The notes under the pieces were generated by a model. It made no database searches and was not told where the DNA came from. It was given only the letters and a program-made list of their open reading frames with translations. 64,000 nt of DNA, from contig CAVUCC010000011.1 in the NCBI GenBank assembly GCA_963739885.1, forward strand, positions 321,760-385,759, given 5' to 3'. Positions 61,101 to 64,000 of the stretch are shown piece by piece. This DNA comes from an uncultured Chloroflexia bacterium (GTDB taxonomy: Bacteria; Chloroflexota; Limnocylindria; Limnocylindrales; CSP1-4). Made by a program: the position numbers and the translations under genes. Each line of letters starts with the position of its first letter. Position 1 is the first letter of the stretch.

Positions 61101-64000
61101 GCCTCCTCCATGGCCTCCTTGACCCACACCTTGACCGCGCTCTCGGTGACCTTCTCGGCGCCCTCCTTGGCCACCTCCTTGGCCATCTGCGCGGCGACCG
61201 CCTTCTCGAGCGCCTGCATGACGCCTTTGCCCAGGCCGGCCGTGAGCCCCGACACTGCGGCATCGACCGTGCCGACGGCGAGATCCACGCCCGCCTCCTC
61301 CCAGGAGTAGGCGGCGCCCCGCAGCTGCGACTTGATCGCCATCGTGGAGGCGGCGGCGGCAACCGCGCCGTAGATGGCGGCCACGACCGGCCCCGCCGTG
61401 CCCAGGGTCGCCACGGTGACCGCGATTCCGGCGATCGCCGCGCCGACCTGGGCCGCGACGTCCGCGTAGGCGTCGATCTGCTCGCGCTCCTCCTGCTGAG
61501 CCGCGAGCGTGCCGCCGTAGTTCATCTCGAAGTTGGCCTTGGCGGCGACGAGGCCGGGGTCCTTGGCCATGTCCGCCGGCGTCATCCCCGGGTGAGCCTT
61601 CTGGAACTCGTCCAGCGTCTTGTCGTAGTCCTCGGCGCGCTTGACGGCGTCCTCGAGCTGCTCGGCCGTGTTCATCGGATCGCCACCCAGGGCGAACACC
61701 TGCCCGATGGCCCCGGTCTCCTCGAACGCCTTGCGCTCGCGGAGCATCGTCTTCATGCCCTCGAGCAGCTGGCGCCGCTTGGCCGGATCCTTCTCCTCTT
61801 CGAGCTGGCGGGCGAAGGTCTCCGGATCGCCGTACTTGAGCTCGTGGCCGATGTCGAGGTCGTCGCGACCCGACAGGTCGCCCAGGATGTCGTCGTCAAG
61901 GGTGTGGCCCGGGTGCTTCTTGGCGTACGCCTCACGGAGCTTCTTGATCTCCGCCGGCGTCTTGCCCTTGAGCACCTCCCTGATCTTGTCCTCGTCGGTC
62001 CCGATGCCGGCGGTGGCGTAGTACAGCTCCTGCTCGTCGGACAGCTTGCCACCGGCAGCCACCAGGTCCTGGATCTCGAGCTGCGAGTAGCCCGACGTCT
62101 CCTCGTTGATGAGCTGGTCGAAGGTCTGGCTGCCGCCCGTGGTCTCCGAGTAGGCGGACCGCAGGTCGCCCATGTTCTGCTGCGCACGAGCCTTGATCGC
62201 CGCGTCCTTGTTGCCGATCTTCTCGCGCAGGGCCGTGGTCTGCTTCCTGTATTCGTCGGGGGTGAGATCGCCCGAATCGGCCATTGCCTTGAGACGCGCC
62301 TGCTCCGCGCCGAGCTCGAGGTTCACGTCGAGATCGGCGCGCTTGTACTGGTTGCGGGTGATCGCCTCCAGCTCGTCATCGCTCGCGTACACGCCGTTGT
62401 GCTCGCGATACGCCTTCGCGGCGTCGATCTTTGCCGCGTCACCGGACTGGAGCGCGTCGACGAGCTTCATGTCCGAGTCGTCGATCGGCGGCGCACCGGG
62501 GCCCTTGAGCCCATAGGCAGCCGCCATGTCCACGTCGAGCAGCTCGTCGCGCAGGTTGGCCTCGAGGTTGCCGTACTTCTGGCCGTACTTGGCCCGGACG
62601 CGGGCGTTGCGATCCTTGATCCGCTGCTGGAGCTCGGCAGGCGTGAGGCCCTCGCGCTTCGCCTTGGCCTCCTCCTCCTCCCGGATCCGTTCGTAGACCT
62701 TCTTGATCTTGTCCTCGTCCGTGCCGGGACCGGCCATCGCGTCCTCGAGCTCGGCCGCATCGGCCTTGTCGACGTCACCCGATGACAGAGCCATGGCGTT
62801 GTCGAGCTCGGCCCCGGACATGTCGTCGGCGAGGTCGGTGTTCAGCTCGACGCCGTACTTGCGCTTGTACTCGGCCTTGATCGCCTCGAGCTCCTCGGGG
62901 GTCTTGCCGCGCAGGGCGTTGCGGATCGCGGCCTCGTCCGTCCCCCAGCCCGCAACCGCCTCCTTGATCGTGGCCGCGTCCGCCTCCGCCGACCTGCCCT
63001 CCATGAGCGCCTTGGCACGCTCCATCTCGTGGCCGCCCATGTCGTCGGCCACGTCGGCCTCCATCGACACGTGGTACCTGGCCTGGTAGCACTTGGCCAG
63101 GGCGGCGCGCTCGACGGCGGTCCGGGCGCCACCCAGGCCCTGGTAGACCTTGTCCTCGTCGGTGCCCCAGCCGGCCACGCCGCCCCTGACCTTGGCCGCG
63201 AGCGCCTCCGGGTTGAACTTGGGGTTGCTGCCCCGGGCGAGCTGCCCGAGCTCCTCCCACGTCCAGCTCGCGATCGCCTGCGCCTCGAGCTTCTTGGCCA
63301 GCTCGGGCGCCCGGCGGTTGCCGATCCGGGCCATCGTGGATTCGGCCACGAAGTCGATGCCGCTGATCTTGCCCGTCAGGTACTTCTGGGCGAGCACCTT
63401 CTGGTCGTTGTCCAGGCGCGCGAACTGCTCGTTGAGCGCATCGCCGTTGTGGGTGACCTGAGCCTTGCGGAGGTCGGTCAGGGCGTTGAAGTCGCCGGCC
63501 ATCGCGTCGCGCGACTCAGCGTTGCGCTGCTTCTCCCAGGCGTCGTTGTTGGCACCCGCCTGCTTGCCCCAGTCGCGGATCATGTCCCACAGCCGGTCCC
63601 ACCACGATCGTTCCTTACCCTGCTGGTGGGCGGCCCAGTCCCGGACGCTCTCCTTCGATGCGGTGACCTGGTTCGAGACGCCGTCGGTAAAGCCGTCGGC
63701 CTCGGCCTTCGCGGCCGCCTTGAGCTTGCGCACCTCGGCAGCCACGGCCGACTGGTGCTTCCGGCCCCAGTCCACGGTCGGGCGAGCCTCGACCATGCCC
63801 CGGTTGGGGTCCTTGTCGCCCGCCCAGTGGCGCCGGATCGCGGCCGCTCGGCCATCCGCGGTCTGGGCGATGCGGCGCTTCTGCTCGGCGCCTGCCGCAT
63901 CCAGGTCCTGGTCGCGATGGATGCCGGCGGCGCGAAGGGCCGCCTGCGCCTGGGCGCCGGTGTCGGTGACCCGGCCGAGGTACTCGTCGCGCTTCTTCTC
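58187..64000 (-). CDS. giant multidomain polymorphic-toxin/effector-like protein, 5' end outside window
   Basis: My own translation of 63797-64000 shows the frame stays open to the window edge (EKKRDEYLGRVTDTGAQAQ...NRGMVEARP...). That gives more than 1,930 codons without a stop. Domain-level evidence is in the sub-features below. Confidence 0.85.
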   Translation of the reverse strand, partial: EKKRDEYLGRVTDTGAQAQAALRAAGIHRDQDLDAAGAEQKRRIAQTADGRAAAIRRHWAGDKDPNRGMVEARPTVDWGRKHQSAVAAEVRKLKAAAKAEADGFTDGVSNQVTASKESVRDWAAHQQGKERSWWDRLWDMIRDWGKQAGANNDAWEKQRNAESRDAMAGDFNALTDLRKAQVTHNGDALNEQFARLDNDQKVLAQKYLTGKISGIDFVAESTMARIGNRRAPELAKKLEAQAIASWTWEELGQLARGSNPKFNPEALAAKVRGGVAGWGTDEDKVYQGLGGARTAVERAALAKCYQARYHVSMEADVADDMGGHEMERAKALMEGRSAEADAATIKEAVAGWGTDEAAIRNALRGKTPEELEAIKAEYKRKYGVELNTDLADDMSGAELDNAMALSSGDVDKADAAELEDAMAGPGTDEDKIKKVYERIREEEEAKAKREGLTPAELQQRIKDRNARVRAKYGQKYGNLEANLRDELLDVDMAAAYGLKGPGAPPIDDSDMKLVDALQSGDAAKIDAAKAYREHNGVYASDDELEAITRNQYKRADLDVNLELGAEQARLKAMADSGDLTPDEYRKQTTALREKIGNKDAAIKARAQQNMGDLRSAYSETTGGSQTFDQLINEETSGYSQLEIQDLVAAGGKLSDEQELYYATAGIGTDEDKIREVLKGKTPAEIKKLREAYAKKHPGHTLDDDILGDLSGRDDLDIGHELKYGDPETFARQLEEEKDPAKRRQLLEGMKTMLRERKAFEETGAIGQVFALGGDPMNTAEQLEDAVKRAEDYDKTLDEFQKAHPGMTPADMAKDPGLVAAKANFEMNYGGTLAAQQEEREQIDAYADVAAQVGAAIAGIAVTVATLGTAGPVVAAIYGAVAAAASTMAIKSQLRGAAYSWEEAGVDLAVGTVDAAVSGLTAGLGKGVMQALEKAVAAQMAKEVAKEGAEKVTESAVKVWVKEAMEEAIENAVQGMPSAFVGSMLDDNTWKSDDPWGQILKATGQAGAMGAGMGVGIKGAKDLGGAAFGKIKGALKGEPRVEGGPIPAGAGEPKVEATAPSELPSEPGEPRAGMPEPNTQPPEVKPLDLPPEGVPDAAAEKALAGDLPPEANGADVTKGGKLPDSAAPEPRASEVGVEGRAAEPEGRATAGSEKGTGGEVHTAADDAVITDLPDGSVAQLPDDQLTDRAANIEAFEAFHQSDPAREVALLRNDVTGEYVIVQGDRGSVSLGRDNPNWAKDLLSPEQLGRGEWVYEAHSHPIEGPGKATAELERWPSGGTKGGDFNGVAAESLRTGKKVSEELHYMTEAGPEKLTYGYDPNAEKPYFIERPGPDGSLERHEFKTIDEYHRFFDDKFHMEPGGPIADNFPGAREPIDPDAPTKRPGELEGPPTKREGKGRASAEPFATDVPEPEAKSLADAGSDTAPRGRPSADDVGRTLTDADLAQRYGMPEANVRRIEAVCAEQGVIVDIRPTTPHAEPMLREGTALPKPEKVKAKTINETDVLIGLGKPEALGKVGFFDPAVVEPHRPPDFESLPKSTQDKIDQRIKQRKEEFAVYQTDMQALQDAGKIRIEPDGTVINTGLVPGGELPFTGDHDIFDIRARDGSPLTPQQYQEAKAALLAADAGVMHGGVTGWSVDAPETFHAPGGQKSYRGMVEAHSPGGTEPLVRLGDGDPKAVWYEPARAAGATGGPGEAAATGGPGAGRAAPTGNQPESPLGERLAPGSDRPPGTPLSPAEEAELTRLVDDQRLDMLGGDVGEIEIDPAAVTSLDLPEYEEGIGRASDLFAGLPDVESRKNVAAGPDAVPEKSGYGGAGAEPSERVRAEGLEAGYEPASHVFDPRELEGIYESSHSERKRAAGTSDQYFASSKPMCPACQRWFAARAMLLDMPIFVGDPTGVRVFLPNGSQARVPHPSGADTTVPRPARRPRRRRGAQTGSR
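58292..58504 (-). other. C-terminal deaminase-like toxin domain (HxE ... PCxxC)
   Basis: YESSHSERKRAAGTSDQYFASSKPMCPACQRWFAARAMLLDMPIFV. HSE lies at 58445-58453 and CPAC at 58379-58390. It is the last folded-looking segment before a basic tail. Confidence 0.5.
58997..59644 (-). other. EF/CyaA/ExoY-like nucleotidyl-cyclase toxin motif set
   Basis: VIVDIRPTTPHAEPMLREGTALPKPEKVKAKT resembles ExoY VFGIRPVERIVTTLIEEGFPTKGFSVKGKSS. PFTGDHDIFDI (59216-59224 is DHD) resembles the TADYDLF metal site. A later GVMHGG has a candidate His. All comparison sequences are recalled from memory. Confidence 0.4.
60047..60424 (-). other. JAB/MPN-like (DUF4329-like) motif region
   Basis: GEYVIVQGD...EWVYEAHSHP(x16)PSGGTKGGDF. 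HSH lies at 60227-60235. The spacing is longer than the canonical HxHx7Sx2D. Confidence 0.35.
60902..61474 (-). other. two Gly/Ala-rich hydrophobic segments (candidate membrane-insertion helices)
   Basis: AAQVGAAIAGIAVTVATLGTAGPVVAAIYGAVAAAASTMAI...VDLAVGTVDAAVSGLTAGLG and ATGQAGAMGAGMGVGIKGAKDLGGAAFG. Confidence 0.5.
61832..63205 (-). other. four annexin-type repeats (G-x-G-T-D-E endonexin fold motif)
   Basis: GWGTDE at 63155-63172 and 62933-62950, GPGTDE at 62714-62731, GIGTDE at 61991-62008. Each has the flanking annexin pattern, for example IKEAVAGWGTDEAAIRNALRGKTPEELEAIKAEYKRKYGVELNTDLADDMSGAELDNAMAL. Confidence 0.7.

Follow-up and report, generated by a model that had tools for sequence, protein, structure and literature searches.

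Sequence data have revealed annexins in bacteria since 2006-2014. In the survey of Kodavali et al. 2014 (PMC3894181), which covered 34 domains in 17 species, none of them from Chloroflexota, annexin repeats were described in architectures combined with DUF4157, toxin and transmembrane (TM) domains in Haliangium, Burkholderiales and Corallococcus. Examples are the DUF4157-annexin-Ntox protein of Haliangium ochraceum and the annexin-TM-colicin D protein of Burkholderiales JOSHI_001. The same authors suspected that further, degenerate repeats lay hidden between those they detected, and they proposed that such proteins serve to deliver toxins. Among the eukaryote-like domains that Geller et al. 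2021 (PMC8213781) listed as enriched at extracellular contractile injection systems (eCIS) is Annexin, and that work also described 'linkers' of >1000 amino acids (aa) between DUF4157 and the toxins; none of the validated eCIS-associated toxins (EATs) listed there was described as annexin-bearing. Here we describe an annexin module encoded in a stretch of 64,000 nucleotides from an uncultured Chloroflexia bacterium (GenBank assembly GCA_963739885.1, contig CAVUCC010000011.1, positions 321,760 to 385,759), referred to below as the window. The module lies on the minus strand, within a giant gene that, judged from comparison of its homologs, is a polymorphic toxin with a conserved core and exchanged C-terminal toxins. 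The module seems to form the core conserved throughout a very large family of injection-system cargo proteins, always paired with a putative membrane-active hairpin.

Residue numbers below refer to the longest listed open reading frame (ORF) of the minus strand, 58187..63796 (1869 aa). The toxin gene and the parts of its core are as follows:

58187..64000, minus strand: predicted giant polymorphic toxin gene, C-terminal 1937 codons of 2825 aa; stop codon at 58187-58189, 5' end beyond the window
63221..63514, minus strand: R0, a five-helix region ahead of the repeats (aa 95-192), not annexin-like; collinear in homologs, helices H2-96 of the AlphaFold (AF2) model
62996..63220, minus strand: R1, annexin repeat 1 (aa 193-267), with GWGT at aa 209-212 and D252 at 63041-63043; PF00191, five helices in the AF2 model
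62777..62995, minus strand: R2, annexin repeat 2 (aa 268-340), with GWGT at aa 283-286 and D325 at 62822-62824; PF00191, alignment with annexin VI/A5
62486..62776, minus strand: R3, annexin repeat 3 (aa 341-437), with GPGT at aa 356-359 and E418 at 62543-62545; N-terminal part by PF00191, hhalign
62051..62485, minus strand: R4', probable degenerate annexin repeat (aa 438-582), without a GxGT loop; hhalign, AF2 model, 62 homologs
61826..62050, minus strand: R5, annexin repeat 5 (aa 583-657), with GIGT at aa 597-600 and D640 at 61877-61879; PF00191
61331..61468, minus strand: Gly/Ala-rich hydrophobic helical hairpin (aa 777-822); Kyte-Doolittle scan

The repeats are true annexin repeats by three kinds of evidence: hidden Markov model (HMM) search, sequence search against the PDB and predicted fold. 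An earlier note on this DNA, made from the letters alone, had reported four GxGTDE copies at 63155-63172, 62933-62950, 62714-62731 and 61991-62008. A regular-expression scan of the minus-strand frame for G-x-G-T-[DE] returns identical coordinates, including the following Glu (ORF residues 209, 283, 356 and 597). The Annexin profile PF00191, which the note had named as a check, scores the whole in-window protein far above its cutoff (E=2.4e-32, 111 bits; cutoff 25). Taken singly, R1 (31.1 bits), R2 (52.0 bits) and R5 (39.6 bits; 'repeat 4' of the note) all exceed this cutoff. R3, scored by itself, falls short of it: its 18.1 bits come from no more than the first 20 HMM positions, and this weak and partial score is explained by a helical insertion, the lengthened helices B and C, which splits the repeat. 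In phmmer searches the best PDB sequence matches are animal annexins (annexin VI, E=1.7e-28; annexin A5, ~1e-18), and R1-R2 are collinear with two consecutive animal annexin repeats, including the 'FNP..DA' start. Moreover, the 606-aa segment of ORF aa 95-700 was aligned with 18 homologs at 29-67% identity (alignment A1), and the AF2 model built from this alignment has a mean pLDDT of 88.5 and a pTM of 0.71. This model consists of helices throughout, and DSSP assigns five of them to each repeat, so that the five-helix bundle expected of an annexin repeat is borne out in the prediction. All 50 of the 50 matches listed by Foldseek against the PDB are annexins or annexin fusion constructs, with probability 1.0. 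The downstream pattern Y..(Y/H)G..L..D(L/V)..(D/E).SG, which the note had ascribed to every repeat, is found in R1, R2 and R5, but R3 keeps the acidic residue and not the SG.

A type II Ca2+ site of annexins consists of G-x-G-T in the AB loop and a D/E 38 residues after the Thr, in the DE loop. We compared these positions in 62 homologs from at least six phyla, many of which are otherwise ~30% identical:

R1 site: T212-D252, 39 residues between; D/E in 60/62 homologs
R2 site: T286-D325, 38 residues between; D/E in 57/62 homologs
R3 site: T359-E418, 58 residues between; E/D in 55/62 homologs
R5 site: T600-D640, 39 residues between; D/E in 61/62 homologs

The GxGT loop and the downstream acidic residue are thus present in four repeats, as the note had suggested checking, whereas R4' has no type II site. 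The longer spacing in R3 is due to its insertion. Across R1, R2, R3 and R5 the second Gly is kept in 56-61 of the homologs, the Thr in 53-60 and the acidic residue in 55-61. The 'x' position of the loop is hydrophobic and often Trp. Retention of the loop and its acidic partner across such diverse homologs argues for selection on the Ca2+/membrane loops, and the pattern of conservation is the one to be expected if Ca2+-mediated membrane binding is under selection.

The number of repeats differs from the first description. The earlier note had spoken of a tetrad interrupted by an insertion of about 160 aa between its repeats 3 and 4. The ~165 aa between R3 and R5 are conserved and collinear in the 62 homologs, and they resemble an annexin repeat that has degenerated. 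Within this stretch, named R4', the C-terminal half aligns with helices C-E of R2 (hhalign 88%, E=2.8e-6) and of R5 (84%), and its N-terminal half with helices A-B of R3 (69%). In the AF2 model R4' is confident and all-helical; helices A, D and E can be discerned, and B and C form a very long hairpin. At the position of the GxGT loop the 62 homologs show the consensus E-x-x-[SG]-x-Y-[AT]-S-D-D. The hhalign alignments and the predicted helix pattern make R4' a probable fifth annexin repeat, a degenerate one, and not an insertion of foreign origin; this assignment stays probable, and not proven, because the Pfam Annexin HMM scored none of the R4' segments from 10 diverse homologs (0/10). R3, for comparison, aligns with R1, R2 and R5 at 96-98% by hhalign. 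Its helices B and C are lengthened and its tail is modelled with low confidence (AF2 helices 267-288 and 292-314, fragment numbering). The DLSGR of R5 is nearly invariant among homologs. R0 was also considered as a sixth repeat and was rejected, with hhalign probabilities below 14% against the annexin repeats.

The packing of the repeats in the model is another matter. The note had proposed superposition on annexin A5, and the whole model fits poorly: global superposition on annexins A5, A4 and A2 gives TM-scores of 0.18-0.32 and root-mean-square deviations of 14-17 Å, and on two annexin VI entries deviations of 24.6 and 22.4 Å. In the prediction the single repeats are annexin-like, but their assembly does not match the eukaryotic I/IV-II/III disc. 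The inter-repeat geometry of the prediction may of course be wrong.

The annexin module is followed by the hydrophobic hairpin of aa 777-822, the sole strongly hydrophobic stretch of the in-window protein on the Kyte-Doolittle scale. A strongly hydrophobic segment lies 40-150 aa past the module in 61/61 homologs long enough to test. It is the sole such segment in nearly all homologs of 2000-3000 aa, and the main one in a few. By BLAST, the hairpin region is conserved in 79/91 homologs. At the level of sequence, therefore, the annexin module and the hydrophobic hairpin are an obligate pair.

The family is large. A word-indexed search returned 91 homologs, mostly of 2000-3000 aa, and all of them but P0049, which is cut at the protein's end, have a precomputed PF00191 Annexin match. 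The ~600-aa module is collinear throughout. When alignment A1 was used as a profile in an exhaustive search, 5149 representative clusters matched at E<=1e-3, of which 814 passed E<=1e-30. The best 150 of these matches, listed down to E~1e-119, are mostly single stretches in giant proteins, and most of those cover nearly all of the module. The earlier statement that annexins are rare in bacteria is thus outdated: with a family of this size it no longer holds for metagenomic data. The C-terminal Pfam domains among the 91 homologs include Ntox4, ADP-ribosyltransferase, AHH, WHH, PT-HINT, SsdA_C and Anthrax_toxA, and three homologs (P0042, P0044 and P0045) have an N-terminal PF13699 eCIS_core domain fused. 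In the ortholog P0003, which is 93% identical, an AHH-type nuclease replaces the deaminase directly after the 'KAVWYEPA' junction (P0003 ~2568-2831 versus 58187-58950 of the minus strand). On this comparison the junction looks like a recombination hotspot for the exchange of toxin cassettes. Another homolog, P0002, ends soon after the same junction.

Behind the hairpin come a Pro-rich linker, two cassettes named M1 and M2 and a C-terminal deaminase-like domain, all joined by Pro-rich linkers. The order of M1 and M2 is shuffled among homologs. The cassettes are as follows:

59897..60526, minus strand: M1 cassette (aa 1091-1300), with invariant E, HxH and D (HSHP...PSG..GD); in 23 homologs
58952..59716, minus strand: M2 cassette (aa 1361-1615), predicted ExoY/CyaA/edema-factor (EF) fold, with LPKPEKVKAKT, FTGDHDIF and MHGG; AF2 model and Foldseek
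58280..58693, minus strand: SsdA-like (BaDTF2) cytosine deaminase toxin domain (aa 1702-1839), with HSE...PMCPAC; phmmer against the PDB

The earlier note had placed the annexin repeats N-terminal to toxin-like domains, and this arrangement is confirmed by the SsdA-like deaminase and the ExoY/EF-like fold behind the module. The deaminase domain matches SsdA, a single-stranded DNA deaminase toxin of a type VI secretion system (T6SS), at E=2.2e-14 (PDB entries 7jtu and 9c63). It has the H-x-E motif as HSE and the P-C-x-x-C motif within PMCPAC. The Pfam models SsdA_C (21.6 bits, cutoff 27) and OTT_1508_deam both remain below cutoff on it. A highly basic tail, PRPARRPRRRRGAQTGSR, ends the toxin after this domain (58190-58240 of the minus strand, last ~17 residues).

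The AF2 model of M2 has a pLDDT of 88.7. Its top 24 Foldseek matches are all ExoY, CyaA or EF structures (E 1e-5 to 1e-2, TM-score 0.28-0.45), followed by matches with E>1. Searched against the PDB, the M2 profile also finds ExoY-like cyclases (E=0.017), a single-sequence search gives no PDB match, and PF03497 matches weakly and below threshold in 3/12 members. The residues K60/K65/K67, D165-H-D167 and H200-G are invariant among members. By its predicted structure M2 is an ExoY/EF-like nucleotidyl cyclase fold. Since its ~255 aa make it shorter than the ExoY, CyaA and EF enzymes, it may lack their cofactor-binding switch regions. In M1 the columns E47, H98, H100 and D124 are invariant, and neither single-sequence nor profile searches of this cassette gave a Pfam or PDB match. 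By eye the arrangement E...HSHP...PSG..GD recalls a JAB/MPN-type metal site; the Pfam and PDB searches gave nothing of the kind. Pfam and NCBIfam scans of the toxin detected no RTX repeats, CPD protease, PAAR, VgrG or Rhs, and the NCBIfam scan assigned the in-window toxin to no family.

The window holds only the C-terminal two thirds of the gene, a point that the earlier note had overlooked. The toxin frame has no stop as far as base 64000, the window edge, and a database protein (P0001) of 2825 aa is 100% identical over the entire in-window part. From the length of P0001, the N-terminal 956 residues of the toxin are absent from the window or only partly inside it. In P0001 this N-terminus (residues 1-956, beyond 63797-64000 of the window) contains a leader-like motif, 'LQRMAGNSAV', and several units of the type 'EIEMPP(L/M)VITG(T)A' within Ala/Gly/Pro-rich low-complexity sequence. 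These are followed by a Lys/Glu/Ala-rich stretch, helical as judged by eye. The toxin ORF has a typical coding signal, with a GC content at third codon positions (GC3) of 0.92 in a window of 71% GC. These values, together with ordinary bacterial genes elsewhere in the window, rule out eukaryotic contamination; the rest of the window holds genes of ordinary metabolism, transport and regulation. An ORF of 1252 aa opposite the toxin (59027-62785, plus strand) fails the codon-position GC filter for coding sequence and was rejected as a high-GC shadow ORF, not a gene.

The genomic neighborhood connects the toxin with contractile injection systems (CIS), whose cargo class the earlier note had not recognised here. 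In a single-protein scan that gave four loci, the nearest ones are from metagenome-assembled genomes (MAGs) of uncultured Chloroflexia, with annexin modules 99% and 96% identical to that of the window (L006 99%, L001 and L007 96%); in L008 the module is 72% identical. Directly upstream of the toxin gene, the Chloroflexia loci (99% and 96%) and the 72% locus carry genes for sheath, tube, Pvc16_N and a WHD+AAA ATPase, and an eCIS_core gene. In L001 a gene of its own, located upstream, carries the eCIS_core domain PF13699. Relatives in four other phyla likewise have the homologous gene beside eCIS genes: it directly follows the WHD+AAA ATPase in Corallococcus and in MAGs of Pirellulaceae and Pyrinomonadaceae, and comes after baseplate genes in Paracoccus caeni, where it is also adjoined by a GerE gene. 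On the other side, the window genes downstream of the toxin are syntenic with the close Chloroflexia loci:

57376..58155, plus strand: convergent 259-aa gene, DUF8367 by its ortholog in L001 (18503-19282); GC3 frame
56727..57374, plus strand: GerE/LuxR-type regulator; PF00196 E=6.7e-14
55339-56607, minus strand: 422-aa protein without a family; conserved downstream in Chloroflexia MAGs
53197-55299, minus strand: PD40/WD40-like beta-propeller protein, 700 aa; conserved downstream in Chloroflexia MAGs

The GerE gene is syntenic in L001, L006 and L008, and GerE is a typical regulator next to eCIS (PMC8213781). The DUF8367 gene evolves fast, being 67-71% identical between loci compared with 81-98% for GerE and 72-99% for the annexin module. 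Because it is kept beside toxins with different C-termini, it is not an obvious cognate immunity gene. A link of the PD40 and 422-aa proteins to the injection system is possible. Near the Corallococcus homolog there is a kinase with weak PD40 and Tricorn_N matches. A shorter and more distant annexin relative, 26% identical, is encoded in a Myxococcaceae MAG (L009, 9200-14728, plus strand; ORF <=1842 aa), with no recognisable CIS genes in its 9-10 kb flanks. Not every annexin-toxin relative, then, need be linked to eCIS, and some of them may use another export route.

Putting these observations together, we consider it fairly probable that the region is a Ca2+-dependent module for membrane docking and insertion in a giant polymorphic toxin that is eCIS cargo; both the cargo status and the mechanism are inferred. 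The family core would consist of the R0 lead-in, the hydrophobic hairpin and, between them, five repeats of annexin type; four of these keep an intact type II site, the remaining one is degenerate, and two have long helical hairpins. On reaching Ca2+ at the target cell or inside it, the cargo would bind the ion through its GxGT loops and the acidic residues paired with them, and the bound Ca2+ would bridge the convex face of the repeats to acidic phospholipids. Such docking would bring the adjacent hydrophobic hairpin onto the bilayer for insertion, and the inserted hairpin would anchor the toxin cassettes at the target membrane or aid their crossing. The role in membrane targeting or delivery that the earlier note had suggested is still the most reasonable reading, and it is strengthened by the hairpin behind the module in every homolog long enough to test. 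Several points weigh against the mechanism. The Ca2+ level of the resting cytosol, whatever the cell, does not suffice for annexins to bind as they typically do, so the model needs a Ca2+ source such as the extracellular medium, the periplasm or a wound-induced influx. The Ca2+ and lipid binding of the module are read from motifs only, and the AF2 model fails to reproduce the canonical annexin disc (TM-score 0.18-0.32). The eCIS genes lie outside the window and are linked to it by synteny with near-identical loci, and the Pfam scan found no PF13699 (eCIS_core) match in P0001. No immunity gene is evident adjoining the toxin, and no SsdI-like gene was identified, no search having been aimed at one. 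In the searchable literature we found no experimental study of any bacterial annexin.

A bolder form of the same reading would make the annexin pentad and the hairpin a self-contained, Ca2+-gated docking and translocation device common to hundreds of CIS cargo proteins. The needle would only breach the envelope; the annexin core would sense the Ca2+ step at the breach, clamp acidic lipids, drive the hairpin into the membrane and carry or anchor any toxin cassette behind it. We put this forward tentatively, as having some modest chance of being right. The cassettes themselves give mixed clues about the target. The ExoY/EF-like fold, as modelled, points to a eukaryotic target, and the SsdA-like, AHH, WHH and Ntox4 cassettes are typical antibacterial weapons.

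The module might instead act in the producer cell, where annexin repeats and hairpin would tether the cargo or the particle to the cell's own cytoplasmic membrane. There it could position or trigger a cytoplasmic CIS or aid particle-releasing lysis, like the membrane adaptors of actinobacterial cytoplasmic CIS. Type II sites need far more free Ca2+ than the bacterial cytoplasm normally contains, which speaks against such a role, as does the ExoY/EF-like fold, which suggests action in a foreign cell. Variable C-terminal cassettes, swapped between near-identical strains, are moreover a hallmark of exported weapons and not of a structural tether. On the other hand, the integral-membrane-like hairpin is conserved in 61/61 homologs, the gene near-constantly adjoins the loading ATPase and no immunity gene is adjacent, all of which would fit a tether. 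Many homologs also come from Actinomycetota and Chloroflexota, and related CIS of these phyla are reported to act intracellularly (e.g. PMC11126660). A contribution of eCIS toxins to producer lysis has been raised as a possibility by Geller et al. (PMC8213781). On balance we regard a role in the producer, whether as a plain tether or in positioning, triggering or lysis, as rather unlikely.

Theoretically, the module could also be an effector in itself, as a mimic of the host's annexins. After its injection through a puncture in a eukaryotic cell, the local influx of Ca2+ would draw it to the damaged membrane, where it would disturb annexin-dependent repair or trafficking and also anchor the toxins. 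The fold family of M2 (ExoY/CyaA/EF) is known only from toxins activated by eukaryotic cofactors. R1-R2 are close to animal annexins, with direct phmmer matches at E=1e-18 to 1e-28, and the Ca2+ ligand positions are conserved; Annexin was also classed as eukaryote-like and as a predicted anti-eukaryotic eCIS effector by Geller et al. (PMC8213781). Yet the same core carries the typical antibacterial cassettes AHH, WHH, Ntox4 and SsdA-like, and in the model the overall packing of the repeats is unlike that of eukaryotic annexins, which leaves mimicry decidedly improbable. Least of all do we expect an inert helical scaffold, a ruler between packaging signal and toxins in which the annexin signature is a relic. 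A relic would not retain exactly the metal-binding positions, and here the GxGT loop (G/T 53-61/62) and the acidic ligand (55-61/62) are kept in four repeats at ~30% identity, in a module constantly coupled to a hydrophobic hairpin. The lack of a GxGT loop in R4' and the long helical extensions of two repeats would suit such a spacer, and the region is described by Geller et al. (PMC8213781) only as a very long linker; still, we consider the spacer a very slim prospect.

The idea of annexins joined to toxins is not new: annexin-toxin fusions (PMC3894181) and the enrichment of annexins at eCIS loci (PMC8213781) were already published. With the architecture and the delivery idea in print, the discovery is incremental. 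New here are the five-repeat reading, the strict coupling of module and hairpin, the size of the family, the first example from Chloroflexota and this toxin load. Of the note's interpretation as a whole, annexin identity and the delivery idea have stood, but not the tetrad, the insertion or the rarity, and the eCIS context was missed. The locus is a clean, high-confidence example of the commonest context of bacterial annexins; it is solid and of possible experimental use, and it will not surprise specialists. If the module is truly a Ca2+-switched membrane anchor or translocator, it would explain the '>1000-aa linkers' of eCIS toxins and would be a portable part for engineered protein-delivery particles. 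If, further, the translocation-device reading is true, it would establish a new class of module for toxin translocation and give bacterial annexins their first assigned function. Whether annexins originated in bacteria is debated, and the finding is relevant to that question too.

Compared with eukaryotic annexins (A5, A6; PF00191), the module has the same ~70-residue five-helix repeat, the same GxGT(D/E)E AB loop with an acidic residue 38-39 after the Thr, and the same hydrophobic loop residue, often Trp. In contrast, the eukaryotic protein is a soluble one of ~320 aa, whereas the repeats here stand mid-way in a toxin of 2825 aa. It has four repeats, whereas here there are probably five, one without a Ca2+ loop and two with helical hairpin insertions of 20-70 residues, and a hydrophobic hairpin and enzymatic toxins come after the module. 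As for polymorphic toxins, multifunctional autoprocessing repeats-in-toxin (MARTX) proteins and T6SS effectors likewise string several enzymatic cassettes on one chain, and share with this protein an ExoY-like fold, an SsdA-like C-terminus and C-terminal swapping between strains. They are delivered by type I secretion or T6SS, unlike the eCIS route inferred here. To our knowledge, an annexin module is no feature of MARTX or T6SS polymorphic toxins.

Closer parallels are the bacterial annexins of 2014 and the EATs. By its described architecture, the former group similarly unites annexin repeats with predicted TM segments, DUF4157/eCIS_core-type metallopeptidase domains and C-terminal toxins, and Corallococcus is among the 91 homologs found here. 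It differs in that the present module occurs in hundreds of 50%-identity clusters, and in that the set of ExoY-like fold and SsdA-like deaminase and the strict coupling of module and hairpin were not in that survey. With the EATs (Geller et al. 2021) the toxin shares its position in the eCIS operon (3' end, behind the AAA ATPase), with GerE adjacent, an eCIS_core PF13699 gene nearby (or the same domain at the N-terminus of some homologs), and a distance of >1000 aa from the N-terminus to the toxins. In that work, however, annexin is a putative anti-eukaryotic toxin domain, whereas here it looks like a delivery core common to many toxins.

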